From Phycisphaerales bacterium (lineage in GTDB: Bacteria; Planctomycetota; Phycisphaerae; Phycisphaerales; UBA1924), in NCBI GenBank assembly GCA_016741915.1, contig JACVCS010000005.1, positions 1,385 to 65,384 on the forward strand: 64,000 bases of DNA, in the 5' to 3' direction. The notes beneath the pieces were generated by a model. It searched no databases and was not told the DNA's origin. It saw nothing but the letters and a program-made list of their open reading frames with translations. The translations under genes and the position numbers were made by a program. Shown here piece after piece: positions 6,029 through 41,171 of this stretch. Positions within the stretch are counted from its first letter, which is position 1. Every line of letters begins with the position of its first letter.

Positions 6029-8005
6029 ATGCGTATCCCCTTCACCAAAGTCTGGCGTGCTTTCCCCGAGCTCGACCGATTCGACGACGACCGCTGCAAG
6101 CGATTCGTCAAACGCGCCTCGCAGGCCTTCTGGCTTGTCAAGCTCTTCCGCTTTCTCATGCACCTTCTCGGCATCGCCATCGGTGGCGTCGTTGTCGGGT
6201 TCGTCCTTCAAGCGGCCTTCGTTCTCGCCGACGATTGGCGTCTCCGCTCGCCAAGCCGCGAGATCTTCGTCGCCGCCGCCGCGTCCGTCACCGGCCTGCT
6301 CGCCTTCGTCACGCTGCTCAGCGTCCGCAACCGCTTCCTCCGCAAACGCATCCGCACCATCATCAACCCCCGCGGCACCTGCCTCTCCTGCGGCTACTCC
6401 CTCCTGGGTCTCCCCGTCCCCGACTCCCTCAAACTCCCCTGCCCCGAATGCGGCTTCACCTGCGAAGTCGATCCCTCCCTCGGCGAACTCAGCAGCGACC
6501 CAGCAGGCCGGGCGACATTCACACCCCGGTCCGATCTGATCGCTCAGCGTGTGTTCTGGACGCCCAAGCGGCGGCGTGTGGCAACCTGGTCGGCCGTGGC
6601 GCTGGTCGTGCTCACCGGCGCGGGCGTTGGACTTTCGCTCTGGATCAAGGAACGACGGATCAACGCGGATATCGCGCAGGCGCGGGCGGACTTGCCCATT
6701 CGACCTAGCCTGCAAGACATTTACAACCGAAGTCTGCCCGCCGACCGCCAGGTCGGTGAGACTCGCATGATTGATCAGCTTGTCGCGATGTCGAAGCTGA
6801 TCGCGGATGCCGAGGCCGCGGTACTGCAGTCTGAGACGCCGGTGAAGAACGACATAGGCAACAAGGTTGATGATTTCGGATACGACGCGTTGGATCCGGT
6901 CGAGAACGAGCGGAGCGTTCTCTTGTTGGATGAGTCGAGGCAGCAGGATGCTCGGAAGGAAGTGGGTTGGCGCGCGGAGAACGCCAACCGTGTCCTCGCG
7001 ATCTTGCAACGCACGCAGTTCAAGGTCATCGCGGCTTCGTGTGCAGCTGGGCTGAACTGGGCGGTTGAATATCCCGAGGATGAGACTGAGCGGCTTGGTT
7101 TCGGCCGACTTTCAAACGTAAGGACACAAGTCCTTTCGTGGATTGCCAACGCTAACCAGCGTCTCGCGTGGGAGCGCAACGAGGCGGAGGCTTTTCAGAT
7201 CTGGTGTCGATTCGTCAGAGAGTTGACGAAGTTTTCCGCTCAGAACCTCGGTACCTTGGATCGTCGTATCGCGTTCGCTGTCCCCGCTCATCAAATCACC
7301 CTGCACATGCGGATGCTCGAGAGCCATGTCGAAGCACCGTGGCTCGACATCATCGCGGAGTTCTGGCAACCGCTGGACAACCTCCAGGTCAGCGTGTTTA
7401 TCGAGGGGCAGCACACCGTGCTCCGCCACCACATCGCGAGCTTCTTCGCGAACAAGGAGAGGCTCAAGCAGGGTGTGTTCGGAAGCTCAAGACCCATCGG
7501 AACGTACACGCAGAATCTGACAACCGCCAAGCATCTCTATGAATCGGCTATCGCTGCCTCTCAAGTGCCAGCGTGGACCCGAAGTCCCCTAGACAGCAAA
7601 GCACAATCCGAAAGCTACGCGATCATCGCTCTTCACGCTCCAAGTATGCTGAATGAAGTGAAATCTTTCGAACTTCACGAGCAATCCCGCCAAACCATCC
7701 TCACCATGATCGCCCTCGAACGCCACCGTCTCGCCCACGGCCAGTACCCCGACCAACTCGCCGACCTGCCCAAAGACGCCCTCGCCAACCTCCCCGTCGA
7801 TCTCGCCACAGGCCTCCCCGCGGCTTACCGCCGAATCGACCCGAAGCTCGACCCGAAACACCGCGGCTACCTCCTCTACCTGCTCGGGCCCGATCGCGAG
7901 GACAACGCCGGCAACGACTACATGCCCGACACGTTCCTGTACGCGATCCCTAAGAACAGCATCCCAAAGGGCTCCGACATCGTGCTGAACGGCCGCCCGT
8001 GGTAG
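6029..8005 (+). CDS. paralogue 3 of 3: 3-TM Zn-ribbon membrane protein
   Basis: 658 aa. MRIPFTKVWRAFPELDRFDD, VRNRFLRKRIRTII, CLSCGYSLLGLPVPDSLKLPCPECG (nt ~6379-6454). C-terminus MIALERHRLAHGQYPDQLADLPKDALANLPVDLATGLPAAYRR...YLLYLLGPDREDNAG. Confidence 0.8.
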   Translation: MRIPFTKVWRAFPELDRFDDDRCKRFVKRASQAFWLVKLFRFLMHLLGIAIGGVVVGFVLQAAFVLADDWRLRSPSREIFVAAAASVTGLLAFVTLLSVRNRFLRKRIRTIINPRGTCLSCGYSLLGLPVPDSLKLPCPECGFTCEVDPSLGELSSDPAGRATFTPRSDLIAQRVFWTPKRRRVATWSAVALVVLTGAGVGLSLWIKERRINADIAQARADLPIRPSLQDIYNRSLPADRQVGETRMIDQLVAMSKLIADAEAAVLQSETPVKNDIGNKVDDFGYDALDPVENERSVLLLDESRQQDARKEVGWRAENANRVLAILQRTQFKVIAASCAAGLNWAVEYPEDETERLGFGRLSNVRTQVLSWIANANQRLAWERNEAEAFQIWCRFVRELTKFSAQNLGTLDRRIAFAVPAHQITLHMRMLESHVEAPWLDIIAEFWQPLDNLQVSVFIEGQHTVLRHHIASFFANKERLKQGVFGSSRPIGTYTQNLTTAKHLYESAIAASQVPAWTRSPLDSKAQSESYAIIALHAPSMLNEVKSFELHEQSRQTILTMIALERHRLAHGQYPDQLADLPKDALANLPVDLATGLPAAYRRIDPKLDPKHRGYLLYLLGPDREDNAGNDYMPDTFLYAIPKNSIPKGSDIVLNGRPW

Positions 8006-22769: not shown

Positions 22770-24590
22770 TTATCTGCTTTCGCTGGTGATTTTCTGCAGG
22801 GCCGCCTCGAGCGCTTCAAGGCGGGCCTTGAGCTGTGCATTATCGGCATCTCGTTTGGTGAGTTCGGCCTTGAGCATTTCGAGCTGACGGTCCTTCTCTT
22901 GACGCAGGTCACGCAGGGCTTCGACCATCAGGGCGGTGGTGGCACGTTCGGTGACGAAGCGGGTGCCGGTGGCGTCGGTGCTGACCCAATCTGGGAAGAC
23001 GCGAGCGACTTCGTCGGCCATGAGGCCGAACTGTGTGCCGGGCAGGGCTTGCCCGCTGGCGACGCGATCGTCGTTGTAGAGGAAGGAGTAGCCGCGGAGG
23101 CTCATGAGTTTGTCGAGAGTTCCCGTGAGCGGTGCGATGTCGTGCTTGGCGCGGGGATCAGAGAGGACACCCCATGACCCGCCACCGGGCTTCAGGGCCT
23201 GGCCGTCGGACTGGAAGCGGAAGCGTTCGAAGAGGCCGCCGCCGGTGGAGGTGGTGCAGATTCGGAAGGAGTCTGTGCCGGTGGTACTGTTGTTATCGCC
23301 GATGATCAGACGCAGCTCGGTCGAGTCGGCGGCGACGTTCACCCTCTGAAAGTACATGGCGTCGGTGTTCTCCGCGTTGCTGCCCTGGTCCGCGATGGGG
23401 CCGAAGTTCAGGCGCCCGCTGTTCGCTGAGGTGTTGATCTGGACATTGCCGGTCACGGTGAGTCGCTCGGGCGGGGCCGCACCGGAGGTGTCCCCGATGT
23501 TGACGTTGCCGTTCGCGTTGAGCAGGAGGTTCCAGGCGGAGTTGTAGAAGCCGATGTTGTCGTTGTCGCGCATGCCAACGAATGCTCGGTCGGTTGGGTT
23601 GGTGACGGGAGAAGCGAACCAGATGCCGGGCGAGCCGCCGCTGGTTCCGGACTCTCCGCGAACGCGGATGCGTCCGGGTGCGAGTTGCAACGCGGTGTTG
23701 GCGGTGTTGGCGAAAGCGGCGACACCGGCGGCGGCGTCGACGGACGAGGCCGGAGTGACATAGGTACGGAACCAGTAGTTGAAACCGCTCCCAGCGCGGG
23801 AACCGGCCGCACCGGGGATCGAGTTTGCTGCTTCTTGGATGACGATGTTGCCTGAGAAATCGAAGGTGTAAGGTGTGCCGGCCTGGACGAGGATGTTCGG
23901 AACGACGAGATCGCGTTGAAGTGGGGAAAAGTTGTTGCCGGGCAACAGGGCGGTGAAGGTGCTGATGAGGGGGCCGTTGGTTCCAACACCGATGTACACG
24001 CGCACGGTGAGCGTCTGCGGTGTCTGGCTGAGGGCGGAGCAGACGCGGAGTTGCAGTCGGGTGAGCTTGCCTGAGACGGACGGTGTCCAAGATTGCCACG
24101 CGGGTGAGATGGCACCCACGTTGAAAACGATCTGACCTGCAACGTCCTGCGCTTGATCGAGCGATTCGGGCCCTCCTCGCGTTATGGCGATTCCGGCGAG
24201 CCCTTGCGCGAGCGGCGCGGGTGTGAGGGCCTGGCGGGGTGAGAGGGTTGTGAAGGACCCCGCGCCGGCGGGTGTGCGGACACTGATTTCAACCCAACGA
24301 GGCTGACCATCATCAAAGGCGGCGCCGAAATCCAGAGGAACGGTGAAGAGGCCGTTGGTGACGGTGACGTTGGTGAGGTTGACGGCAGGGGCGATGGGCG
24401 ATCCACCGGTGAGCGTGGAGAAGAGCTCGGCGCGCAGGTCGATAACACCGGTGATCGGCGCGCTCGACGAAGAGAGAGAACCCTGGTAGGTGAAGGCGGT
24501 AGTGGATTGAGCGGCCGCAAACGGAACAAAGAGCAGCGCGGCGCAGAGACTGATGACAAGACCGCGAAGCGTACTGAAAGACATCGACAT
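22770..24590 (-). CDS. secreted fibre-like protein B: no P-domain, FTYQG module, type-2 middle, S74-like C-terminus (type 2)
   Basis: Trimmed to ATG 24588-24590 (MSMSFSTLRGLVISLCAALLFVPFAAAQ). The mature N-terminus goes directly into TAFTYQGSL...RWVEISVRTPAGAGSFTTLSPRQ. C-terminus SDPRAKHDIAPLTGTLDKLMSLRGYSFLYN...FGLMADEVARVFPDWV, followed by a coiled coil. Confidence 0.75.
   Translation of the reverse strand: MSMSFSTLRGLVISLCAALLFVPFAAAQSTTAFTYQGSLSSSSAPITGVIDLRAELFSTLTGGSPIAPAVNLTNVTVTNGLFTVPLDFGAAFDDGQPRWVEISVRTPAGAGSFTTLSPRQALTPAPLAQGLAGIAITRGGPESLDQAQDVAGQIVFNVGAISPAWQSWTPSVSGKLTRLQLRVCSALSQTPQTLTVRVYIGVGTNGPLISTFTALLPGNNFSPLQRDLVVPNILVQAGTPYTFDFSGNIVIQEAANSIPGAAGSRAGSGFNYWFRTYVTPASSVDAAAGVAAFANTANTALQLAPGRIRVRGESGTSGGSPGIWFASPVTNPTDRAFVGMRDNDNIGFYNSAWNLLLNANGNVNIGDTSGAAPPERLTVTGNVQINTSANSGRLNFGPIADQGSNAENTDAMYFQRVNVAADSTELRLIIGDNNSTTGTDSFRICTTSTGGGLFERFRFQSDGQALKPGGGSWGVLSDPRAKHDIAPLTGTLDKLMSLRGYSFLYNDDRVASGQALPGTQFGLMADEVARVFPDWVSTDATGTRFVTERATTALMVEALRDLRQEKDRQLEMLKAELTKRDADNAQLKARLEALEAALQKITSESR
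22905..23228. repeat. near-identical ~324-bp tract shared with 24763..25086 (3' ends of fibre genes B and C)
   Basis: Hand alignment at an offset of 1858 nt shows about a dozen mismatches. The tract encodes the type-2 S74-like domain. Confidence 0.85.
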
Positions 24591-24627
24591 ATCTGTGATC
24601 TCCGAGAGCAATCGTTCGTTTGAGTGT

Positions 24628-26496
24628 TTACTTGGGTTGATCAGCGCGTTCACGAGCGAGTTGGTTGATGAGCGACTTGAGCTGAGCCACTTCGGCTTTC
24701 AAGGCCTCGACTTCACGACGATCGGCGCTGGCCTGGGCCGCGACTTCGTCCTTTTCTCTCCGCAGATCACGCAGGGCCTCGACCATCAGGGCGGTGGTGG
24801 CGCGCTCGGTGACGAAGCGGGTGCCGGTGGCGTCGGTGGAGACCCAATCTGGGAAGACGCGGGCGACTTCGTCGGCCATGAGGCCGAACTGCGTGCCGGG
24901 CAGGGCTTGCCCGCTGGCGACGCGATCGTCGTTGTAGAGGAAGGAGTAGCCGCGGAGGCTCATGAGTTTGTCGAGAGTTCCCGTGAGCGGTGCGATGTCG
25001 TGCTTGGCGCGGGGATCGGAGAGGGCGGCCCATGATCCGCCGCCGGGCTTCAGGGCCTGGCCGTCGGACTGGAAGCGGAAGCGTTCGGTGAGGATGCCGC
25101 TGACGGAAGTGGTGCAGATGCGGAGCGAGTCGAGGTCGTTCGGGCCGCTGTTATCACCGATGACCAGGCGCAGCTCGGTCAAGTCGGTGCCGGCGTTGAT
25201 GCGGGAGAAGTAGACGGCGTCGGTGTTCTCGGCGCCGCTGCCTTCATCGCCGACGGTGCCGAAGGCGAGCTTGCTCGGCACGGAGGTGGTGCTGGTATTG
25301 AGCTGGGCATTGCCCGTGATGGTGAGACGCTCTGGGGGCGCAACACCCGAACCGTCACCGATGGCGATGTTGCCGTTGGCGTTTGCACGCAGGCGCCAGT
25401 CGCCGTTGATGAAGAAGCCGACGTTGTTATCGTCGCGCATTCCGACGAAGGCACGATCGGTCGGGTTGAACGCGGGCGACGCGAACCAGATTCCGGGCGA
25501 GTTGCTGGTCGTGCCGGTATCACCGCGGATGCGTTGACGGCCGGCGGCGAGCTGTGTGGCAGTGCTCGCGGTGAGGGCCAGGGTGGCGATCTGGGCGGTG
25601 CGTGCTTGCGGCACCGGGGTGATCGGCTGACGTGGACTGAGTGTGACGAAGCCCGAGCCGGGGGGCGACTCAACCTCGATGTTGAGCCAGAGTGCCTGGT
25701 CGGTATCGATGGCGGAGGCGAAGTCGAGGGTGGTGGTCACTCTGCCGGAAGAAATCGCGGTGAAAGATCTGGTGATCGCTGGAGCGATGTCGGAGATGTT
25801 TAACGGACGGCTCGGGTCGTTGCAGAGTGTGAAGCGAACGTTGGCATTGCCGTTGATCGGAACTCCAGATGCGGTGAGCACACCCTGATAGGTGAATGCG
25901 GTGGTGACGGTCTGTGGCGGGGCTTGGTCGAAGCTGATCGCCCAACCGCCGTCGAAGGTCCCGTCGTCTCCACTAGGGAAGTCGTCCAACACGTACAGAC
26001 TCCAAGTTCCGTTGGCGTTGGTGCCCAGGAGGGGGGAAAGCGAAGTCAGGTAAGGACCGGCCGGGGCTGGCGCGGGCAGGCTACTCGGCACGGAGTAGAC
26101 GGAACAGGCATAGACCCCGGAGACGACCGGGGCGGTGAATCCTGGAAGCGTCTGTGTGGCGTCGGATGCAAAGATCAAGTTTGCGTTCGAGGCATCGCCG
26201 GAGCCGTTGGTGTTTGCCATGAGCAGAATCTTCTGACCGGCGGGCGAAACCAGCAGCACGTTGACGTCGTTCGCCCACGTGTGGCTGAAGTTTTTCAGTT
26301 GCACCGTGACGTAACTGATCGAGGCGGGCCCGCCGGTGACGTTGATGGTGCTCGGGTAGATCAAGCCAACACCGTTGCTGGATGATGAAGGGAAAGCGAT
26401 GGGTGCTGGATTGCTAAACGTTTGCGCGCAAACCGAAAGCGGTGTGAGCAAAGCCGCGGTAAGCGTGCAGGCGAGAAAGTGGAAACGGGTATTCAT
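24628..26496 (-). CDS. secreted fibre-like protein C: P-domain-like N-terminus, type-2 middle, S74-like C-terminus (type 2)
   Basis: Trimmed to ATG 26494-26496 (MNTRFHFLACTLTAALLTPLSVCAQ). P-domain-like VLLVSPAGQKILL...NGTWSLYVLDDFPSGDDGTFDGGWAISF. ALWLNIEVESPPGSGFVTLSPRQ. The C-terminal ~110 aa are nearly identical to protein B. Confidence 0.8.
   Translation of the reverse strand: MNTRFHFLACTLTAALLTPLSVCAQTFSNPAPIAFPSSSSNGVGLIYPSTINVTGGPASISYVTVQLKNFSHTWANDVNVLLVSPAGQKILLMANTNGSGDASNANLIFASDATQTLPGFTAPVVSGVYACSVYSVPSSLPAPAPAGPYLTSLSPLLGTNANGTWSLYVLDDFPSGDDGTFDGGWAISFDQAPPQTVTTAFTYQGVLTASGVPINGNANVRFTLCNDPSRPLNISDIAPAITRSFTAISSGRVTTTLDFASAIDTDQALWLNIEVESPPGSGFVTLSPRQPITPVPQARTAQIATLALTASTATQLAAGRQRIRGDTGTTSNSPGIWFASPAFNPTDRAFVGMRDDNNVGFFINGDWRLRANANGNIAIGDGSGVAPPERLTITGNAQLNTSTTSVPSKLAFGTVGDEGSGAENTDAVYFSRINAGTDLTELRLVIGDNSGPNDLDSLRICTTSVSGILTERFRFQSDGQALKPGGGSWAALSDPRAKHDIAPLTGTLDKLMSLRGYSFLYNDDRVASGQALPGTQFGLMADEVARVFPDWVSTDATGTRFVTERATTALMVEALRDLRREKDEVAAQASADRREVEALKAEVAQLKSLINQLARERADQPK
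24763..25086. repeat. partner copy of 22905..23228
   Basis: See 22905..23228. Confidence 0.85.
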
Positions 26497-26563
26497 GTTC
26501 GAACTCCTGTGAGGGGATGGCAATCCGGTGGGTGGGGAAATGATGTCGATGCGCGTACACGCG

Positions 26564-28519
26564 TTACCGTAGCGTTGGACGCGGCTCCTTGAGCAACTGT
26601 TCAAGCCGGTCGAGTCGGGCCTTCAGCTCGGTGTTCTCCGCGTCGCGTTTGGCCAGTTCGCTCTCGAACTTTGCCTGCTGCTGCTTGATCGCCTGGATCG
26701 CCACCGCGGTCAGGCGTGAGTAATCCATGCCCGTGACCTTGCCCTCGGCGTCGTAGAAGACCACCTCGGGGAATACCTTGGCGACTTCTTCAGCAACGAA
26801 GCCGATGTCGTGCTCGCGACCGGGGCGGTCCTTGGCGAAGTCGGGGTTCCAATCGAAGGAAACACCTTCGAGCTTCAAGAGCTTGTCGAGCGCGTCGGTT
26901 ATCGGCGCGACGTTGTGCTTGAAGCGGCCCGACGAAGGGACGGCGACGTTGTTCGCCAGCACGTTGCCCGCGACGGTGAGACGCTGGCTGGGCGAGGTGG
27001 TGCCGATGCCAACATTGCCGTTGGCGTCGATGAGCATTCGCGCAGCCCCGGCGGAGCGGTCGACGATCTGGAACGAGCCGTTGAGTTGGCTTCCCGGGGG
27101 CGAGTTCGTCGATGAGGATTGGATCGACCAGGTGCGAGCGGCGGCGTTGCCGCCAGTTGCCGGGCCGCCGGTGAGTGCGATCTGCGTGTCGGAGTTGGTA
27201 ACGAGGTGCAGCGGGAAGGTCGGCGTGATCGTTCCGAGGCCGATGTTTCCGTTGGGCAGGAAGGTCATGCGGACGGCGGCGGAGGTTCCGTCGCGGATCA
27301 AGAACGCACCGGCGAGTTCGGTGTTGCTGGGACCGGTCGAAACCAACTGCCAGGTGCGTCCGTCGATGGCACCGTTTCGAATCGCAAGCCAAGTGCCAAA
27401 GCCGGAGCCGCTGTCGAAGAGGACCTGATCGAAGGTGATTCCCGAAAAGACGTGGAGGTTCGCAGAGGGCGATGGGGTACCGATGCCGACGCGCCCGAGG
27501 CTATAACTGATCTGGTTTGTGCCGGCGTCCCATGGGCTGAAGGCGTTGCTGACGTTTGCGGGCACGCCGGTGATTCCCGTCCATGGGACCGAGTTGGCGG
27601 TTACGGCCGAAGTCGCCGTCGTGGCGATGCGTGCCTGCGGCGCGGGAGTCAGAGGCTGGCGGGGTGAAAGGGTGACGAACCCCGAGCCCGGGGGGCTTTC
27701 GACTTCGATCTGCAGCCACTGAGCGCGGTCGGTCTTCAACTGACGCCCGATGTCGACGCTGGCACTGAAGAGGCCGTTCTGCACCGCGACGGCGTTGACG
27801 GTGCTGATGTTCCCTATGCGCAGAGCTTCGGAAGTCGAGGTTGGGTTTTCCCACACGGAGAATCGGAAGTTCGCGGTGGAACTGCTCGGAGCGTTCTCGA
27901 GCTTGCCTTGGTAGGTGAACGCGTTGGACTGAGAAGTTGCCGCCGGCAAGAACTCGATCGACCAACCGCCGGTGATAACCAACGGATCTGCCGGTGCGAA
28001 CGAATCGGACACGAATAGCTGCCAGTTTCCGTTGGCCTGAGTGCCCGTCAATGATGAAAGCGTGGCGTTGTACGGACCGCCCGGTGCCGGTGACGGGGCT
28101 GAGAAGTTGACGGAGGAGGTGGTGAGATAAACCCCGGAAACAAAGTTCGTGGAGGTTGTTGCGGGGGCTGTCGTTGCCTCAGCGAAAAACGTGGCGGTGG
28201 TGTTGACGGCATCGCCGCTGCCGAAGTTTCCGTTCAGGAGCGCGATCGCCTGTCCACCCGGGCTGACGAGAACGATGCGAATATCAGAGCACCAGGTGTG
28301 GTTGATCCCGTTGATGGTCACCGCGACGCGTTGAACCGTGTTGCCCGCCAATGCCCCGCTGGGCACGGTGATCACACTTGGGTAGAGATTTGCGGTGGTT
28401 TCGTTGAGCGGCACGCTCAACGGGGTCGCGTTGGAAAATGTCTGCGCACGCGCGGACGATTGCGCCAGGACAAGCACGCTCGATGCGGCGATGATCGGCA
28501 GGAGAAGACGCTTCAGCAT
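26564..28519 (-). CDS. secreted fibre-like protein D: P-domain-like N-terminus, type-1 middle, S74-like C-terminus (type 1)
   Basis: Trimmed to ATG 28517-28519 (MLKRLLLPIIAASSVLVLAQSSARAQ). IVLVSPGGQAIAL...NGNWQLFVSDSFAPADPLVITGGWSIEF. AQWLQIEVESPPGSGFVTLSPRQ. The C-terminal ~120 aa are nearly identical to protein A. Confidence 0.8.
   Translation of the reverse strand: MLKRLLLPIIAASSVLVLAQSSARAQTFSNATPLSVPLNETTANLYPSVITVPSGALAGNTVQRVAVTINGINHTWCSDIRIVLVSPGGQAIALLNGNFGSGDAVNTTATFFAEATTAPATTSTNFVSGVYLTTSSVNFSAPSPAPGGPYNATLSSLTGTQANGNWQLFVSDSFAPADPLVITGGWSIEFLPAATSQSNAFTYQGKLENAPSSSTANFRFSVWENPTSTSEALRIGNISTVNAVAVQNGLFSASVDIGRQLKTDRAQWLQIEVESPPGSGFVTLSPRQPLTPAPQARIATTATSAVTANSVPWTGITGVPANVSNAFSPWDAGTNQISYSLGRVGIGTPSPSANLHVFSGITFDQVLFDSGSGFGTWLAIRNGAIDGRTWQLVSTGPSNTELAGAFLIRDGTSAAVRMTFLPNGNIGLGTITPTFPLHLVTNSDTQIALTGGPATGGNAAARTWSIQSSSTNSPPGSQLNGSFQIVDRSAGAARMLIDANGNVGIGTTSPSQRLTVAGNVLANNVAVPSSGRFKHNVAPITDALDKLLKLEGVSFDWNPDFAKDRPGREHDIGFVAEEVAKVFPEVVFYDAEGKVTGMDYSRLTAVAIQAIKQQQAKFESELAKRDAENTELKARLDRLEQLLKEPRPTLR
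26681..27038. repeat. partner copy of 20811..21168
   Basis: See 20811..21168. Confidence 0.85.
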
Positions 28520-28618
28520 GATCAAACTCCAGTTTTGAGACGAAGTACACACGGCAGACAGCATGGCAGAAACCGGCTTTCGCGACGCGGGGGTTGCGAT
28601 TCAGGCATTCGGCAAGAG

Positions 28619-30208
28619 TCATCGCCCTCCAATGAGCGTGAAGGAAAACGCCGAGTCGATCTGAGCGCCGCCGCCGTTCGCGCAGCGAACGTCGACGAGC
28701 CCGGAGCCGTCGGGATTCAACGCGCCGCTGGTGGTGGTGACGATGACATTGGAGCTGATGGCGTTGCCGGTAAATGTCGGGAAGTCGCTGAACCCGTTCG
28801 GGCCTGTCCACTGAATCCGGTACAAACCGACACCGGTCCGGCTGACGGTGAAGCCCGATCCGCCGGTGACGGTGCCCAGGGCGCTCACCGAGCCGCGCGT
28901 GATGCGGAGCGTCTCACCCGCGCCCACTGCGGAGTACTGGCTGGTGTTCCCGAAGCGGATGTTGCCGCGGACATCAAGGCGGGCCTGCGGCGTGGTGTTG
29001 CCGATGGCGACGTTGCCGACTTCGTCGATGCGCATCAGTTCGCTGTAGCTGGAGCCGAGAGAAGATTCGACGCCGAAGCGAAGTGCGTTGCCGTTGCTCC
29101 AGATGATTGAACCGGGAGAACCGGCGCCTTGCAGGCTGGCGTAAAGGAAGTTGGTGCCGTTGGTCAGGCCGATGGTGGGAAGGTTTGAAAGCGACGAAGG
29201 CGAAGCGACCTGCAGCGACATCGATGGTTTCAGCACGCCGATGCCCACGCGCGAGGGGGTGCTGACCGACGCGGCGCCGCCGACGGTTTGGAGCTGCGAG
29301 CTCCACCCGCCGGAAACCACCGGCGGGACGGTCAGCGGCTGCCGCGGTGTGAGCTTGACAAAACCGGAGCCGGCGGGAGATTCAATCTCGACCTCGAGCC
29401 ACAGGGCGCGGTCGCCCGGGAGTGACTTGCCGAAGTCGACGTTCGCTGTGAAGACCCCTTGGTTCACAGGAATGGCGGAAACGGAGAGCGGCCCCAGCAG
29501 GCGCATCGCGCTGTTGCTGTTCGATGCCGACTGCCAGACCGAGAAGCGGGCGTTGATCGGGCCCGTCACGCCCGGGTTGAGCTTGCCCTGGTACGTGAAG
29601 GCGGTGGGAGTCGGCGTGGGGTCATCAAAGAACTCCAGTTCCCACCCGCCGGTGATGCTCAACGGGTCCGCGGCGGAGAATGAATCGGCAACATAGAGGC
29701 TCCAGAATCCGTTGCTGGCGACGCCGCTCAACGCGGCAAGCGTGCCTGTATACGGCCCGGCGGGCGCGGGCGCGATGAACGTGGAGATTCCATTCGGGTT
29801 CGGCACGTACGCACCCGAAGGCAGGTTGCTCCCGGGTTCAGGAATGGCCGCAGGTGCCTCGGCGAAGAATGTGACGGTGGCGTTGTTTGCATCGCCCGCA
29901 CCCGTGTTGTTTGCCAGCAGTTGGATCGGAGCGCCCACCGGCGGCACCAGCAGAATCTGTGCGTCGGCGAGCCACGTGTGGTTGAACCCCTTGATCGTCA
30001 CGGCGACCCGACGCACGACATTGCCGCTGACTCCGTTGAGCGGCACGTTGATCACGCTGGGGTAGAGCGAAGGGTAGTTTGTGCCGGGCGGACAGGTGAT
30101 CGCGCCGGTGTTGGAAAAGACCTGCGCGTGCGACGATGTTGCGAGCCCGAGGCACGAGGTCACGCAGGCGATGAACGAAGCACAGAAGGTGGCGAGCGGG
30201 TCTCTCAT
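28619..30208 (-). CDS. secreted fibre-like protein E: P-domain-like N-terminus, FTYQG module, distinct C-terminus without S74 domain
   Basis: 529 aa. Signal peptide CVTSCLGLATSSHAQ. ILLVPPVGAPIQL...NGFWSLYVADSFSAADPLSITGGWELEF. FTYQGKL...ALWLEVEIESPAGSGFVKLTPRQ. It ends in a different beta-rich domain (...GLYRIQWTGPNGFSDFPTFTGNAI...SFTLIGGR). Confidence 0.8.
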   Translation of the reverse strand: MRDPLATFCASFIACVTSCLGLATSSHAQVFSNTGAITCPPGTNYPSLYPSVINVPLNGVSGNVVRRVAVTIKGFNHTWLADAQILLVPPVGAPIQLLANNTGAGDANNATVTFFAEAPAAIPEPGSNLPSGAYVPNPNGISTFIAPAPAGPYTGTLAALSGVASNGFWSLYVADSFSAADPLSITGGWELEFFDDPTPTPTAFTYQGKLNPGVTGPINARFSVWQSASNSNSAMRLLGPLSVSAIPVNQGVFTANVDFGKSLPGDRALWLEVEIESPAGSGFVKLTPRQPLTVPPVVSGGWSSQLQTVGGAASVSTPSRVGIGVLKPSMSLQVASPSSLSNLPTIGLTNGTNFLYASLQGAGSPGSIIWSNGNALRFGVESSLGSSYSELMRIDEVGNVAIGNTTPQARLDVRGNIRFGNTSQYSAVGAGETLRITRGSVSALGTVTGGSGFTVSRTGVGLYRIQWTGPNGFSDFPTFTGNAISSNVIVTTTSGALNPDGSGLVDVRCANGGGAQIDSAFSFTLIGGR

Positions 30209-30253
30209 GGTCTTCTCCCTCTGCGGGCGTGATTGGTCGTCTTGAACGGCGGA

Positions 30254-31585
30254 TCAGCGGGGTGATGCGGGCGTGTTTGGGCGGGGTGATTCGTCGGTGG
30301 CGTGTGCAAGCACGGCGCGGGCGGGCACTTGTGCGCCGCACTCGGGGCAGAGCTGTGAAGTCAGGCCCGTCAGGTCGTAGCGGCAGTTGGTGCAGAGGTT
30401 TTCGGCGAAGAAGCGGGCCTTGAGCGAAGGGCGGCTGCCGATGCTGTAGAGCGGAAACAGGAAGAGCGTTAGGGCCGCCAAGAGGAACATCACCGGCGCC
30501 GGACCGAAGAAGAGCGACGTGCCCACGGTGATGTCGAAGGCGAGATCGATGCCCACGCCCGAGAGTGTCCAGCCCGACAGGCGGCGAAGATCGAGCTTGA
30601 GGATGCGCCAACCGATGAACGCCCAGACGAGCGCCCGCTCGGCCAGCAGCACCGCCCAGGATTCGTAGAGTCGATCGGCCTTGCCGTCGGTTGCGTTCAT
30701 CACCAGCCACGCGACGTACAGCAGGCCGATCCCAACCACCGCGCGGGCGATGGCGATGGAGACCGCTGAGCCGCGCGACAACGGCTCGGGCGTGCCCACG
30801 CGGTAGCGGAACGCGAGGATGAAGAAGACGTACGTGATCGGCTTGACGAGCAGCAGCAGCGGCAACGCAACCCCCACACCGAGGTTGTCGAAGGCCGGGC
30901 CGCACGCCAGGAACACGGTGGTCATAGCTCGAGAGTCCAGACCGGGAAACGAACGAACGAGGAACCAACGCCGCGCCGGTCCTTCGCCAACGCGAGCCCG
31001 AGCGGCGCGGGTTGAGCCGAGCGAAGCGCGGGGGGACAGATCACGGAACCGAGGCTCGGTGGGCACACCAGCGGTGGAAGGACCGCCTTCAGAGCATACC
31101 ACATCGCGGCCCGAAATCCGGGGCAATGTGCACCAACCCGTCTCTTCGTCGCGCGGTGTGTGTGAAGCTGGGCTGATTGACCCGCTCGATGGCACGAGCG
31201 ATCGCGCATACGTTCGGCGAATGACGATCCCACCTCCATCGACCAAGGGGAAGCCCTCGTTTCTGGACACCCAGTCGTCCGTGGTGGCGAGGCACTGCCG
31301 CTTCGTGACGGCCCGGAGCGCCGCGTTGACGAACTTTCCTTCGGCGGGGAGATCCCACGCCTCGGTGTCGAGCCTCGCGCGCACCCACACGCCGGGCCCG
31401 AGGATGTCGTTGTCGGTGCGCCAGCGCAGCAGGTGGAACCACACGCTGGGCCCGCGGCGGTCGATCAGCGCACTCGGCGATGACCGCGCCACGATGCCGC
31501 ACATCGTGCACGTGGTGTGCGGCCAAGGCTCGACGGGCTCCGCGCGCCACGGATCGGGCGCGGCGGGCGGATTCCGCGGCGGCAT
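30254..31585 (-). CDS. polytopic membrane protein with C-terminal CxxC...CPECG zinc ribbon, possibly with a soluble N-terminal domain
   Basis: The secure part is 30254..30925 (ATG 30923-30925). It reads MTTVFLACGPAF..., has 5-6 TM helices, and ends in CTNCRYDLTGLTSQLCPECGAQV (nt ~30333-30394). The same frame is open and has high GC3 upstream to ATG 31583-31585 (MPPRNPP...CTMCGIV...WFHLLRWRTDNDILGPGVWVRARL...GFPLVDGGGIVIRR), so one 443-aa protein is plausible. The stop lies 46 nt before fibre gene E. Confidence 0.55.
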   Translation of the reverse strand: MPPRNPPAAPDPWRAEPVEPWPHTTCTMCGIVARSSPSALIDRRGPSVWFHLLRWRTDNDILGPGVWVRARLDTEAWDLPAEGKFVNAALRAVTKRQCLATTDDWVSRNEGFPLVDGGGIVIRRTYARSLVPSSGSISPASHTPRDEETGWCTLPRISGRDVVCSEGGPSTAGVPTEPRFRDLSPRASLGSTRAARARVGEGPARRWFLVRSFPGLDSRAMTTVFLACGPAFDNLGVGVALPLLLLVKPITYVFFILAFRYRVGTPEPLSRGSAVSIAIARAVVGIGLLYVAWLVMNATDGKADRLYESWAVLLAERALVWAFIGWRILKLDLRRLSGWTLSGVGIDLAFDITVGTSLFFGPAPVMFLLAALTLFLFPLYSIGSRPSLKARFFAENLCTNCRYDLTGLTSQLCPECGAQVPARAVLAHATDESPRPNTPASPR

Positions 31586-31693
31586 CGGGCTCCGATCGAC
31601 GAGGGTTTGCGCAAGGGCCCTGCGGCGTGCGCGGGGCACGGCGTGCGAGTCTGCCGGCCCGCGGTGAACGTGTGCAGACCGGGCACGGCGTGT

Positions 31694-31972
31694 TCAGTGC
31701 GTGAAGTTCGCGTGCGGGCCGGCGGCGGCGGCGGCGGAGCGGTCGATGATCGGGCCGTCGACGTTGTTGGCGGCGATCTCGATGCCAGGCGTGTTGGCGG
31801 CGTTGACGGCGGTGCGCAGCCCGATCTCGGCGAGGGCTTTTTGGGTCGAAGCCGCCGGCCCCAGCGGCGGAGACAACGGCCCGGCCAGGGCGGTGCTCTG
31901 AACCATCACCGCGGCGAGGATCAGCGCCGCCGCGGCGCACGCGGTGCGCACGGTGGCACGGCGGAGGCTCAC
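31694..31972 (-). CDS. small secreted protein, possibly a truncated N-terminal fragment of a larger surface protein
   Basis: GTG 31970-31972. Signal peptide (M)SLRRATVRTACAAAALILAAVMVQSTALA|GPLSPPLGPAASTQKALAEIGLRTAVNAANTPG... Third-codon positions are almost all G/C. It stops after about 60 mature residues. Confidence 0.4.
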   Translation of the reverse strand: MSLRRATVRTACAAAALILAAVMVQSTALAGPLSPPLGPAASTQKALAEIGLRTAVNAANTPGIEIAANNVDGPIIDRSAAAAAGPHANFTH

Positions 31973-32259
31973 CGCACCGGAACGCGGCGAGGGCTCGGCG
32001 GGGTTCGTCGGATGCTTGCGGTTCAGCGTCGAACGGTCGGTGCGGGTGCTCGTGCCGAGAATCGACCACGCACAAGCGGAACTGGCCACTGGGCACGGGC
32101 GGCCCTCCAGCGGCCGTGCCCCGATCGGCACGGCGGCGGCCCGCACGCCGGCGCTCGCGCGGCGGAGGGTCGACAAAGCACCGCCCGCGCCGGCGTACGC
32201 GGGGCGCACGCGGCCGAACCGAACGCACGCCCACGCCAGCGCCGCACAGGTCCACACGA

Positions 32260-32574
32260 ACGCAACGCACGTGCAGACCACCGTCAGAAAAGTCTGGGCC
32301 AACGTCAGAAAAGTCTTGACGAATGTGAGGAAAGTCCTGACGAACGTGAGAAAAGTCTTGGCAAACGTGAGAAAAGTCTTGGCAAACGCCAGAAAAGTTC
32401 ACACCAACGCCACGTTCCATCACACCAACGCCGCATTCCATCACAGGAACGGAGCATTCCTTCAGACAAACGCGACGTTCGATCACACAAACGCGACGTT
32501 CCATCACACCAACGCGGCATTCCATCACACCAACGCGGCATTTCTTCAGGCCTACGCAGCGTTTGGTTCGGCGA
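32260..32574 (+). repeat. tandem array of 15 head-to-tail 21-bp units in two subfamilies (plus ~2 degenerate units from ~32218)
   Basis: The units read from the sequence are as follows. One unit ACGCAACGCACGTGCAGACCA. Six A-type units (consensus ACGTGAGAAAAGTCTTGGCAA, 32281-32406). Seven B-type units (consensus ACGCGACGTTCCATCACACCA, 32407-32553). One decayed unit (32554-32574). The period is exactly 21 bp throughout. Confidence 0.9.
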
Positions 32575-32731
32575 TTAACGCGCGGGCATTGATTTCGACG
32601 TGTAAAGACCACTTTTATTGGGCGAGAGCCCGGGCGAAACTGCCCTCTGAATCGACTTCAATCGTACGATTCTGCTTGCTGCTTGCATTCGGCTGAAACA
32701 TGAAATCAGCACACCGCTCCTCTGTCGGGTT

Positions 32732-35617: not shown

Positions 35618-36050
35618 GACCCCTCTGACTTGGCAGTGTACTCCGATCAACGACCGAGTGAACAGCGGTACAGTTGTCGGGCTCTCAAGATAAAGACACC
35701 CCGATATCGATTTCAACGCGGGAACCTTCCACAATACCCCGCCAGACTACGTGTGTGTGTCGATATCATCCGTTCGGACGCGCAATAAACTCCTGGCTCC
35801 CCCTGCTCATGGGTGGCATCTTTCAGAATCTTGCGCGCCGCAAGCGGCAGATCCGGCGTTCTTCGCCGGATTCTCCGCGGGTGTGGCGTCCATTCTCGCA
35901 CATGTCACAATCATCAATAAAAAAATCACGTCCAACTCAAGTGTGATGACGACTCTTCCGAACTCATCTTGACTCCCGCGCGTTGTTGCGTGGGGTCAAC
36001 ATCACATGGCCCGGGCCTTCCGTTTCGCCTCGGGCTTCGGAGGTCTTATT

Positions 36051-36749
36051 ATGTCCACCCTGCCCGACAAACGCGAGGAACTTATCACTTGGTGCCAGGC
36101 CCACGCTCCCGTCTGGGAGAGCAACCCCGCCTCCATCGGCCTGACCGTCGCCCAGGCCAACGCCTTTATCGACCTGACCGAAGAGGCCCAAACCGCGCTT
36201 TTGAACCAGGAAAAGGCCAAGCAAGCCGCACTGAGCGCCACCAACTCGGCGCAGGAGACCATCGGCGATCTGCGCTCCATGGCCGGGGAGTTTTTGCGCA
36301 CCATCCGCGCTTTCGCCGCCACGACCAACAACCCGCAGGTCTTCATCAACGCCCAGATCCCGCCCACCGCCGCCCCCTCGCCCGTCGGGCCCCCCGGCAC
36401 CCCCGACAACTTCAAAATCGCCCTCGACACGCAAGGGGCTATCACCTTACGTTGGAAATGCCAGAACCCGGGCGCGGCCAGCGGCACTTCGTACATCGTC
36501 CGCCGCCGGTTCGGTTCCAGCGGCGAGTTCCTCTTCGTCGGCGTGGCGAACAAAAAGACCTTCACCGATTCGACGATCTCCGGCAACGTCTCGCAGGTGC
36601 AGTACACCGTGCAGGCCGTGCGCTCGGACCAGAGCGGCCCGCTGAGCCAGACCGTCGTGGTCCGCTTCGGCTCGGGCGGCGCCGGCGGCGGGCAGATCCT
36701 CAGCGTCACCAGCGGCGAGCCCGGCGACAACGTCAAGCTCGCGGCGTGA
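36051..36749 (+). CDS. hypothetical protein with C-terminal fibronectin type III-like domain
   Basis: Start set at ATG 36051 (MSTLPDKREELITW). The N-terminal ~120 aa are helical. After PPGTPDNF comes IALDTQGAITLRWKCQNPGAASGTSYIVRRRF...FTDSTISGNVSQVQYTVQAVRSDQSGPLS (FN3 W/Y/L pattern). No signal peptide. Confidence 0.6.
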   Translation: MSTLPDKREELITWCQAHAPVWESNPASIGLTVAQANAFIDLTEEAQTALLNQEKAKQAALSATNSAQETIGDLRSMAGEFLRTIRAFAATTNNPQVFINAQIPPTAAPSPVGPPGTPDNFKIALDTQGAITLRWKCQNPGAASGTSYIVRRRFGSSGEFLFVGVANKKTFTDSTISGNVSQVQYTVQAVRSDQSGPLSQTVVVRFGSGGAGGGQILSVTSGEPGDNVKLAA

Positions 36750-36845
36750 GACGGGAAGGGCCGAGGGTTCAGGGCCGAGGGCCGAGTGGGTGTATTCAAC
36801 GCCCGGTTGCCCGGCGGCCACGGACGCATGAAGCATCACCGCACC

Positions 36846-36876
36846 AAGCCCCGGTCATCACCGGGGCTTTTTGTTT
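36846..36876 (+). terminator. rho-independent terminator after the FN3 gene
   Basis: AAGCCCCGG (36846-54), loop tcatca, CCGGGGCTT (36861-69), then TTTTGTTT. Confidence 0.7.
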
Positions 36877-36944
36877 CCGGCCAGCGGCGGGGGTGCGTGC
36901 GTCGGTGATGAACCGTTGTTGACGGTTTGTTATACTGCCGATCT

Positions 36945-38156
36945 ATGGAAGCGAAGCAGAGTTCCAACGACCCCACCCCGCTGCTCGACGCGCTCGTCAC
37001 CGACGACGACCTGCAGCGCTTGGAAGACCGGCTCGGCGCCTTCAACGTCTTTGAGGCCCTCGGCGTTGTCCGCGCCGAGGTTCGGCACAGCAATTTTCTG
37101 GCGTGGCTGCTCGACCCGATGGAATCGCACGGCCGCGGCGATCTGTTCCTTAAGGCCGTGCTCATGGACATGCTCAAGAACGCACCGGCGGACCTGCGCC
37201 CGCTCTCGGCGGCCCACCTCGACGGGGCCGACCTTGACAGCGCCGAAGTCCGCCGCGAGTGGCGGCGCATCGACCTCTTGGTTATCTGCAAGGAACAGAA
37301 CTTTGCGGTGATCATCGAGAACAAGGTCGACAGCGGCGAGCACTCCAGCCAGCTCGAACGCTACGAGCAGATCGCCCGCACCGAGCTGCCGGGCATGCGG
37401 CATTTTTTCGTCTTTTTGACCCCCGACGGCGACGCGGCCAGCGACAAGGACTGGGTGGCGTACTCGTACGCGCAGCTCCACGGCGTGCTCCGCCGCGTGC
37501 GCGACCACGCCGAGCAATCTTTCGGACCAGATGTGAAGATCTTCCTGGATCATTACCTCTCGCTTGTGAGCAACCACATGATGAACGACGAAGAGATCGA
37601 CGAGCTGTGCAGGCGTATCTACAAGCGTCACCAGGAAGCGATCGACCTTGTTGTCGAACGCGCGATGGGCGAAAGCCCGATCCAGGCGGCCTTGCATGAT
37701 CTGGTGGCGGCCCAGAGCGATCGTTGGGTGATTACCAAACGCAACAAAACTGAGGTGCGGTTCGTGCCAAAGCCGTGGTACGACGTACTTCCCCCGGTGC
37801 GTGAGGCGTACAAGGATCACCGCAGCGGCTGGATCGCCTGCTACCTCTGGTGCAAGGACGGGTACCTGGAGTTCTCGGTGTGGATCCTGAAAACATCGAA
37901 CCCCGAGGTGCAGGAACGCGTGGCGAAGCGCCTGTTGCAATCGCCCGACGAGTTCGGGTTCGCCCTCAAACGCCGCAGGCAGATCGTCGGCACTCAGGCG
38001 TTGCAGCTTGTCAGCAAAGCCATCGACGACTGGGGCGAGCACGGCGAGCCGGACGAGGACTCGGTGATCGAAAAGACCAAACGCGAGCTCGACGCGCTCT
38101 GGTCACGCGTGCCGGCGGTGACGGAGGCGATTCGGAGTGTTCTGGCCACTGGCTGA
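36945..38156 (+). CDS. PD-(D/E)XK nuclease superfamily protein
   Basis: Start ATG 36945 (MEAKQSSND). N-terminal FNVFEALGVVRAEVRHSNFLAWLLDP...HGRGDLFLKAVL, then the core RIDLLVICKEQNFAVIIENKVDSGEHSSQLERY (D...E-x-K). This pattern is typical of the 'PD-(D/E)XK nuclease family protein' group (PDDEXK-type Pfam families). Confidence 0.75.
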   Translation: MEAKQSSNDPTPLLDALVTDDDLQRLEDRLGAFNVFEALGVVRAEVRHSNFLAWLLDPMESHGRGDLFLKAVLMDMLKNAPADLRPLSAAHLDGADLDSAEVRREWRRIDLLVICKEQNFAVIIENKVDSGEHSSQLERYEQIARTELPGMRHFFVFLTPDGDAASDKDWVAYSYAQLHGVLRRVRDHAEQSFGPDVKIFLDHYLSLVSNHMMNDEEIDELCRRIYKRHQEAIDLVVERAMGESPIQAALHDLVAAQSDRWVITKRNKTEVRFVPKPWYDVLPPVREAYKDHRSGWIACYLWCKDGYLEFSVWILKTSNPEVQERVAKRLLQSPDEFGFALKRRRQIVGTQALQLVSKAIDDWGEHGEPDEDSVIEKTKRELDALWSRVPAVTEAIRSVLATG

Positions 38157-38195
38157 ACGCCCGCTCGGCGCGAATGAACGAAGCACAACGAAAAG

Positions 38196-38225
38196 AGCCC
38201 CGGGCTGACCCGGGGCTTCTTTCTT
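38196..38225 (+). terminator. hairpin terminator between the convergent nuclease gene and atpD
   Basis: AGCCCCGG, loop gctgac, CCGGGGCT, then TCTTTCTT. The A-run upstream (38191-38194) could serve the minus-strand atpD as well. Confidence 0.6.
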
Positions 38226-38287
38226 GCGATCGTTGTTTGCGGCTTTGGTGCTTTGCCCTTTGCTGTTTTCAGGGCGAAGCCCGCCAC

Positions 38288-41171
<2,884 letters not shown>

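Follow-up and report, generated by a model that had tools for sequence, protein, structure and literature searches.

A 21-bp tandem array beside a defence-gene swap slot in a Phycisphaerales genome is best read as a copy-number-variable minisatellite

The window analysed here is a stretch of 64,000 nucleotides from a Phycisphaerales genome, and at positions 32239-32574 it carries a head-to-tail array of 21-bp units. By a modest preference, we consider the array to be a non-coding, copy-number-variable minisatellite (VNTR) in an intergenic spacer. Its units are uninterrupted and of constant period, and copy differences of whole units separate it from its close relatives, as is characteristic of VNTRs. 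In L013 (a Phycisphaerales MAG from a lab-scale reactor and a sister genome of ~95% identity), the spacer lies between annotated genes, yet an open frame is called as a gene there. A minisatellite at a recombination-prone boundary fits best; it was absent from the two readings, a heptad-repeat gene and an iteron-like element, put forward in an earlier inspection of the letters (hereafter, the sequence-only reading). Comparison with related genomes places the array in the resident core DNA, with a hypervariable cluster of surface-fibre genes on one side and a slot in which defence genes are swapped on the other.

Organization of the repeat array

When laid out in a 21-bp register, the array comprises 16 head-to-tail units with zero indels (unit starts at 32239, 32260, 32281 ... 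32554). The units fall into two decayed B-like, five A, one A/B hybrid, seven B and one final decayed unit, as follows.

32239 to 32280, plus strand: two decayed B-like units, with 14/21 and 15/21 identity to B units
32281 to 32385, plus strand: five A-type units, consensus ACGTGAGAAAAGTCTTGGCAA
32386 to 32406, plus strand: A/B hybrid unit ACGCCAGAAAAGTTCACACCA, its left part A-type and its right part B-type
32407 to 32553, plus strand: seven B-type units, consensus ACGCGACGTTCCATCACACCA, in the same order of variants as in L013
32554 to 32574, plus strand: last, decayed unit, in which homology of the L013 type stops at ~32565, the left junction of the KAP NTPase cassette

The start-to-start spacing given by the repeat finder is exactly 21 throughout. 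Tandem Repeats Finder (TRF), the program proposed for this purpose in the sequence-only reading, resolves two blocks, one of 5.6 copies at 32282-32398 (85% matches) and one of 6.9 copies at 32399-32542 (82%), and additionally detects a 63-bp higher-order period in the B block. The exact 21-bp period first proposed is reproduced, and the 16 units of the register layout fall within the 15-17 of the sequence-only reading. The original tally of six A and seven B units with degenerate edges likewise matches our recount, in which the hybrid at 32386 is counted separately, and the ACG at the start of nearly every unit is seen in the register layout.

The two unit families share one register, and members of the array differ at up to a third of their positions. 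Matches to the A and B units with up to 3 mismatches number 3 and 4, respectively, compared to 0.01 and 0.00 expected by chance per window, and no copies of the units were found elsewhere in the 64-kb window. An A3-4 tract is present in each A unit, so that the tracts are phased every two helical turns. Directly 5' of the first A unit, inside the decayed left units, lies the palindrome GCACGTGC (32268-32275), which is kept in the window, L013 and X1 and replaced by GCACGCCC in X8, X4 and orgA (these assemblies are described below). The orgA counterpart of the hybrid unit is a full A unit. Local GC around the array is 0.54-0.64. An inverted repeat flanking the array (32213-32226 and 32559-32572) was considered and dropped, as it is absent from L013.

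In the minisatellite interpretation, a block of A units became nested within an older B-like 21-bp array. Each of the blocks may gain or lose whole units through slipped-strand mispairing or unequal recombination, in which case every length change would be a multiple of 21.

The array in related genomes

L013 was located by scanning GTDB species representatives with a degenerate B-unit pattern, and it was the sole true relative in two degenerate-pattern scans of genome contigs. Variants specific to single units follow each other in L013 as they do in the window (CCACG..., CCGCA...AGG, GGAGCA, ...TTCGAT..., ...TTCCAT..., ...TTTCTTCAGGCCT). Homologous arrays with the same unit order are also present in assemblies X1, X3, X4, X8-10, X12 and orgA. 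These are Logan contigs, their sources being metagenomes of sludge, wastewater and bioreactors and a culture labelled "organism A". The contigs measure 5.9 kb in X8, 21 kb in orgA and 2 kb in X4, and a relative is present at high depth in the "organism A" culture (runs X14-16).

Beyond L013, five or more assemblies from sludge, wastewater or culture carry the array, and its copy number differs by plus or minus 1-2 units. Compared to the window, L013 has one more A unit (six clean A units before the hybrid) and one fewer B unit, and X1 has one A unit fewer, with an array-KAP junction identical to that of the window. Compared to L013, X8 carries a 21-bp insertion (one additional B unit), orgA and X4 each carry 42 bp more of B sequence (two additional B units), and orgA lacks two A units. 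Every one of these length changes involves whole units. The question of copy-number variation in multiples of 21 bp, raised in the sequence-only reading, is therefore answered by whole-unit changes only among the relatives compared. Frame-breaking indels in relatives, named there as evidence against a coding role, do not occur among them. All of these relatives are close (90-95% identity), so that the comparison has little power.

Genomic context and the swap slot

The first gene of the fibre cluster, which encodes a secreted beta-helix protein, starts ~200 bp from the array and reads away from it. The features that border the array in the window are the following.

31694 to 31972, minus strand: beta-helix gene remnant; similarity extends to about 32050-32060, and the full-length copy in L013 encodes 455 aa
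32732 to 35734, minus strand: KAP-family P-loop NTPase cassette of low GC (Pfam KAP_NTPase; PADLOC PifA-like)

In L013, the array is contained within an 860-bp spacer flanked by two divergent genes. In the orientation of the window, the leftward genes of L013 are the fibre cluster, a Zn-ribbon protein and the 455-aa secreted beta-helix protein (ORF at 6365-7732 of the plus strand; Pfam match Beta_helix), and to the right of the array is a rightward gene for a 1104-aa P-loop NTPase. By tblastn, residues 2-90 of the L013 beta-helix protein align with window positions 32050-31784 at 65% identity. The window remnant retains the N-terminus and the last residues of the protein, the entire beta-helix having been removed by internal deletion, and the ATG of the L013 gene is ACG in the window. 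The neighbours of the array in the window thus include the beta-helix remnant, a Zn-ribbon membrane protein, the KAP NTPase, a 247-aa protein, a PD-(D/E)XK nuclease and ATP synthase. The sole tRNA of the window is located at 42.5 kb. A consensus scan of both spacers for a sigma-70-type promoter found none, and two terminator-like matches in L013 are at chance level.

The beta-helix gene has relatives of 81% and 58% identity that carry no array upstream, indicating that the array is not tied to this gene family. Among relatives of the 1104-aa NTPase, a 21-bp array is found upstream in L138 only, and none is present at L137, L139, L140, L141 or L142. The L138 NTPase is 50% identical to that of L013, and an array of ATGCTCCATCCCGCCCCCGAA units, at the very start of L138, lies ~260 bp upstream of this gene; the L138 unit matches the B unit at 13/21 positions in the best rotation, and the matching frame reads MLHPAPE, a proline-rich, non-helical peptide that speaks against a coding role. 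In L139, three CATCGATG motifs spaced ~22-24 bp apart occur upstream of the NTPase. Within the C-terminal part of the L013 NTPase itself, a 126-bp (42-aa) repeat occurs in 3.9 tandem copies (L013 2454-2949). In L013, a short ORF upstream (MGATTTGFCRLSALVLCAG...) is cut off from the main NTPase ORF by a stop codon, whereas the two are fused in L138 and L139.

The right-hand side of the array differs between strains, and sister strains have different defence cassettes of the NTPase type there. In the window, the KAP NTPase cassette begins inside the last array unit and its gene is convergent with the candidate frame of the array, and L013 carries the different, 1104-aa NTPase at this place in the opposite orientation. 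Homology between the window and L013 stops at ~32565, within the last unit, and resumes at 35797, which bears out the proposal that the array marks the left border of a low-GC island; the gap between the end of the array ORF and the stop of the KAP gene, given originally as 36 nt, is corrected here to 35 nt. At least four right-hand contexts occur beside the array: the KAP type of the window and X1, the type of L013 and X4 (whose right flank is that of L013), and those of X8 and orgA. The latter two match L013 only up to 5791 and 5789, respectively, i.e., 52-54 nt beyond the array, and their flanks beyond this junction differ from each other. The occurrence of at least four contexts next to a conserved array indicates that the array belongs to the core DNA and is the last conserved element before the slot. 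A second strain-specific insert lies beside the slot: a segment of ~1.5 kb with a PD-(D/E)XK (PDDEXK_4) nuclease gene (window 36750-38287) is missing in L013, which keeps only ~150 bp between the flanks of the insert.

The two sides of the slot also differ in their divergence from L013. To the right, the backbone is 95% identical, with a dS of 0.13 in a 232-aa right-flank gene. The fibre cluster, the left spacer and the A block are 64-79% identical, and the 529-aa fibre gene has a dS of 0.79. When aligned unit by unit, the B block shows ~94% identity to L013, such that identity jumps from ~75-78% in the left flank and A units to ~94% in the B units. In a comparison with L136, nucleotide identity was ~74-76% over window 24000-32400 versus 95% over 35797-39704. 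This step suggests that the fibre region either was acquired from a divergent donor or has evolved very fast. Since the step falls at or near the A/B boundary, the exchange breakpoints of both sides lie within the array or next to it. The B units were also considered for constraint at the nucleotide level, which was dropped because their 94% identity to L013 is the genome baseline.

In another reading, the phased units are binding sites that mark where cassettes are exchanged: an att-like site, or a platform onto which a recombinase or nucleoprotein complex is loaded, would define the left end of the defence slot. We hold this to be improbable. The four right-hand contexts start within 0-54 nt of the array end, the breaks in X8 and orgA (L013 5791 and 5789, respectively) are only 2 nt apart although their flanks are different, and the divergence step from 75% to 94% coincides with the A/B boundary. 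Moreover, 21 bp corresponds to two helical turns, and the period therefore places all units on the same face of the DNA. On the other hand, neither the junction sequence nor the units recur where the slot ends on the right, genes for an integrase or recombinase are absent from the slot and from the scanned flanks, the cassettes occur in either orientation, and coincident junctions are also expected from homologous recombination that uses the conserved flank. It is thus a slim chance that the array is a putative docking site which fixes the position of defence-cassette exchange in this Phycisphaerales lineage. Such a site would be of a different kind from the attI/attC sites of integrons and the att sites linked to tRNA genes.

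Coding potential of the array

The coding frame suggested in the sequence-only reading is part of the following feature.

31944 to 32696, plus strand: longest ORF in the candidate coding frame, 250 aa, with heptads VRKVLTN... and then ATFHHTN...

Under this alternative to the minisatellite, the array encodes a small plus-strand protein of about 110-250 aa, with basic VRKVLTN heptads followed by His-rich ATFHHTN heptads. Its product would perhaps be a long alpha-helical or coiled-coil rod, the length of which varies among strains via VNTR changes, and it might partner fibre proteins. We view a protein-coding array as less probable than the minisatellite, but as a serious competitor to it. The single-sequence AlphaFold2 model consists of one long helix over residues 2-132 (pLDDT 82, and >90 over the array), the fibre gene cluster adjoins the array, and in L013 gene calling assigns a gene of 112 aa to the candidate frame.

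The properties of the reading frames point in both directions. The candidate frame has the highest GC3 of the six, as originally described, but the contrast with the remaining frames does not hold throughout, since two more frames, of lower GC3, are open across the window array (31517..32578 on the plus strand and 31089..32612 on the minus strand). With three of six frames open in a genome of 65% G+C, ORF openness means little. The candidate frame is the sole frame without stops in all six variants (window, L013, X1, X8, X12 and orgA); this is weak evidence, however, because B codons cannot become a stop in one step. In comparisons with X1, X8, X12 and orgA, its pooled pN/pS of 0.45 is the lowest (0.55-1.34 in the other frames), although this is near the values of the neighbouring frames (0.55-0.66). 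The synonymous variants among units in the best frame amount to 6/16 (p=0.25) and 7/18 (p=0.06), and no frame is significant.

The codon log-odds score of the candidate frame is likewise the best of six, at 0.03 per codon, but it is below those of all 273-nt windows of real genes (mean 0.45, minimum 0.05). The rare codons AGA (1.4 per 1000) and CAT (2.2 per 1000) occur in nearly every unit. The residue following the invariant N is V, A, G or E, and heptad position 5 is occupied by L/R/W/Q/H. As V, A, G and E are all encoded by GNN codons, what is conserved after the N is the base G and not an amino acid, and conservation in the units follows bases (AACG, AAAGTC) rather than residue chemistry. 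The A units read V..VL.. with V/A/G/E at position 1, and the B units place F and T/H at candidate core positions; the substitutions at core positions are radical.

Neither end of the putative gene is stable among strains. The GTG at 32271, initially proposed as the start of a protein, is not conserved, being GCC in X8, X4 and orgA, and the ATG of L013 is missing in the window. The stop codon lies in cassette-specific DNA: the last 8-47 codons after the conserved part come from the adjacent cassette, and the C-terminal tail of the ORF is consequently non-homologous between strains. The coding proposal therefore retains the best of the six frames but is weakened by its codon score, its unconserved start and its cassette-specific tail.

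An exhaustive phmmer search of 1.8 billion proteins yielded 176 matches, the best of which are proteins of 900-1900 aa (P0127, P0128 and P0130). Their heptads follow the pattern N-[SA]-[AG]-F-x-[HQ]-[AT], into which the B heptads (N-A-[TA]-F-H-H-T) fit, with E values of 1e-50 to 3e-20. P0127 and P0130 have weak PHROG tail-fibre matches, and P0130 matches cyanophage tail-fibre genes by tblastn. The B-block translation scores 194 bits against the tail-fibre proteins, a value that none of 1500 column-permuted arrays attained (0/1500, maximum 149), but the tail-fibre family was singled out post hoc from the 1.8 billion proteins. The likeness of the A heptads to VRKVLAS-type peptides was set aside, as these peptides come from ORFs that run across unrelated 21-bp minisatellites. 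Among 5.8 billion protein clusters, the heptad peptide had no relative in a word-index search, the array ORF has no Pfam, PHROG or PADLOC family match, and no such heptads were found in the fibre genes of the window itself. Several runs among X8-X16, labelled as RNA-Seq or transcriptomic, were considered as evidence of transcription and discarded: their contigs are of 6-185 kb, with an even depth over those of 20-185 kb, indicating that these runs contain genomic DNA and provide no evidence of expression.

Possible roles at the DNA level

The second of the originally proposed readings was that the units are iterons for replication or partition (Rep- or ParB-type sites), belonging to an integrated element or to the chromosome. 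In-phase direct repeats of ~21 bp do resemble plasmid iterons of 17-22 bp, and gene orientation and GC skew switch around 32-36 kb, in the vicinity of the array. Nevertheless, no gene for an initiator or a partition protein was seen up to about 6 kb away, and there is no AT-rich unwinding element conserved between strains, the flank that follows the array differing among them. Furthermore, the units are far more heterogeneous than iterons and of two unrelated families, the array is part of chromosomal core DNA common to strains with different cassettes, and it has no match among 72,556 plasmids and 50,697 phages. The units are phased and conserved, but the setting that defines iterons is missing, and we regard the iteron proposal as very improbable; as a replication origin, the array is rejected.

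A structured RNA or CsrB-like sponge was also considered, as the minus-strand B units carry GAUGGAA. This candidate was discarded: the folds are non-significant (z-scores of -0.9 for the plus strand and -1.6 for the minus strand), and no Rfam family matches at the array.

Within the minisatellite interpretation, the array may still play a role as DNA. The AACG motifs, repeated on the same helical face every 21 bp, and the phased A-tracts could act in the divergent promoter region; alternatively, the array would promote recombination or simply be a recombination-prone boundary. A DNA-level function is conjecture, since neither a DNA-binding partner nor a promoter was identified.

Arrays of this kind are not restricted to the Phycisphaerales. 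A metagenome scan returned unrelated arrays in L024/L025 (Bacteroidota-like) and L026 (high-GC), whose likeness to the B unit is built in by the search pattern. In L026 (878-1079), ~10 CATCGATGAAACGGCGCGTTC-like units based on CCATCRAT cores are located between two genes, and their stop codons and irregular period (alternating between 20 and 21 bp) indicate that this array is non-coding. In L025 (2500-2790; also in L024), a low-GC contig carries 3.5 tandem 21-bp units of TTTACCTGAGTAAACGCCACG, and several dispersed TTTACCTGAGT-like sites occur in the same spacer; this cluster looks like an operator- or iteron-like element unrelated to the array described here. An array of this type is therefore not unusual, and the presence of such intergenic arrays in unrelated bacteria (L025 and L026) counts against a coding role.

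The importance of the array depends upon which of the readings applies. As a VNTR and no more, the array would be unremarkable; it could serve to type strains of these sludge Phycisphaerales and to mark the left edge of a slot whose defence genes differ. In the case of translation, slippage of the repeats would determine how long a helical protein beside the fibre cluster is. If it binds a factor involved in cassette exchange, it would provide a testable handle on the organization of integrase-free defence hotspots.

Comparison with known systems

Plasmid iterons of the pSC101, R6K and RK2 type are direct repeats of 17-22 bp that bind Rep. Like them, the array is composed of in-phase direct repeats of about two helical turns. 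Unlike them, it has no Rep gene, DnaA-box or AT-rich module, its units are heterogeneous, and it resides in the chromosomal core.

With the stalk heptads of cyanophage-type tail fibres (P0127, P0128 and P0130), the B units share N, A, F, H and T/A in register. The tail-fibre proteins, however, are of 900-1900 aa, with diverse heptads and globular domains, whereas the array has ~8 near-identical 21-bp copies, rare codons and no N- or C-terminal fibre domain. The A block, in addition, is in a different register from that of the stalk heptads.

VNTRs in promoter regions and upstream elements of phased A-tracts are known, and those of the Neisseria and Haemophilus type serve as a spacing switch. 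The array occupies a similar position in a divergent spacer, ~200 bp ahead of a gene cluster, and has an A3-4 tract every 21 bp in its A units. Since its copy changes preserve helical phase, a spacing switch of the Neisseria/Haemophilus type is not expected here.

Among known systems, the mycobacterial MIRU-VNTRs share with the array an intergenic location, head-to-tail units of tens of base pairs with variants and higher-order periods, and copy differences of whole units between close strains. In contrast to the dispersed MIRU-VNTR family, the array is a single locus within the window, and it differs further in that its units, although of two unrelated families, keep a single register, and in that it borders a gene-swap slot.
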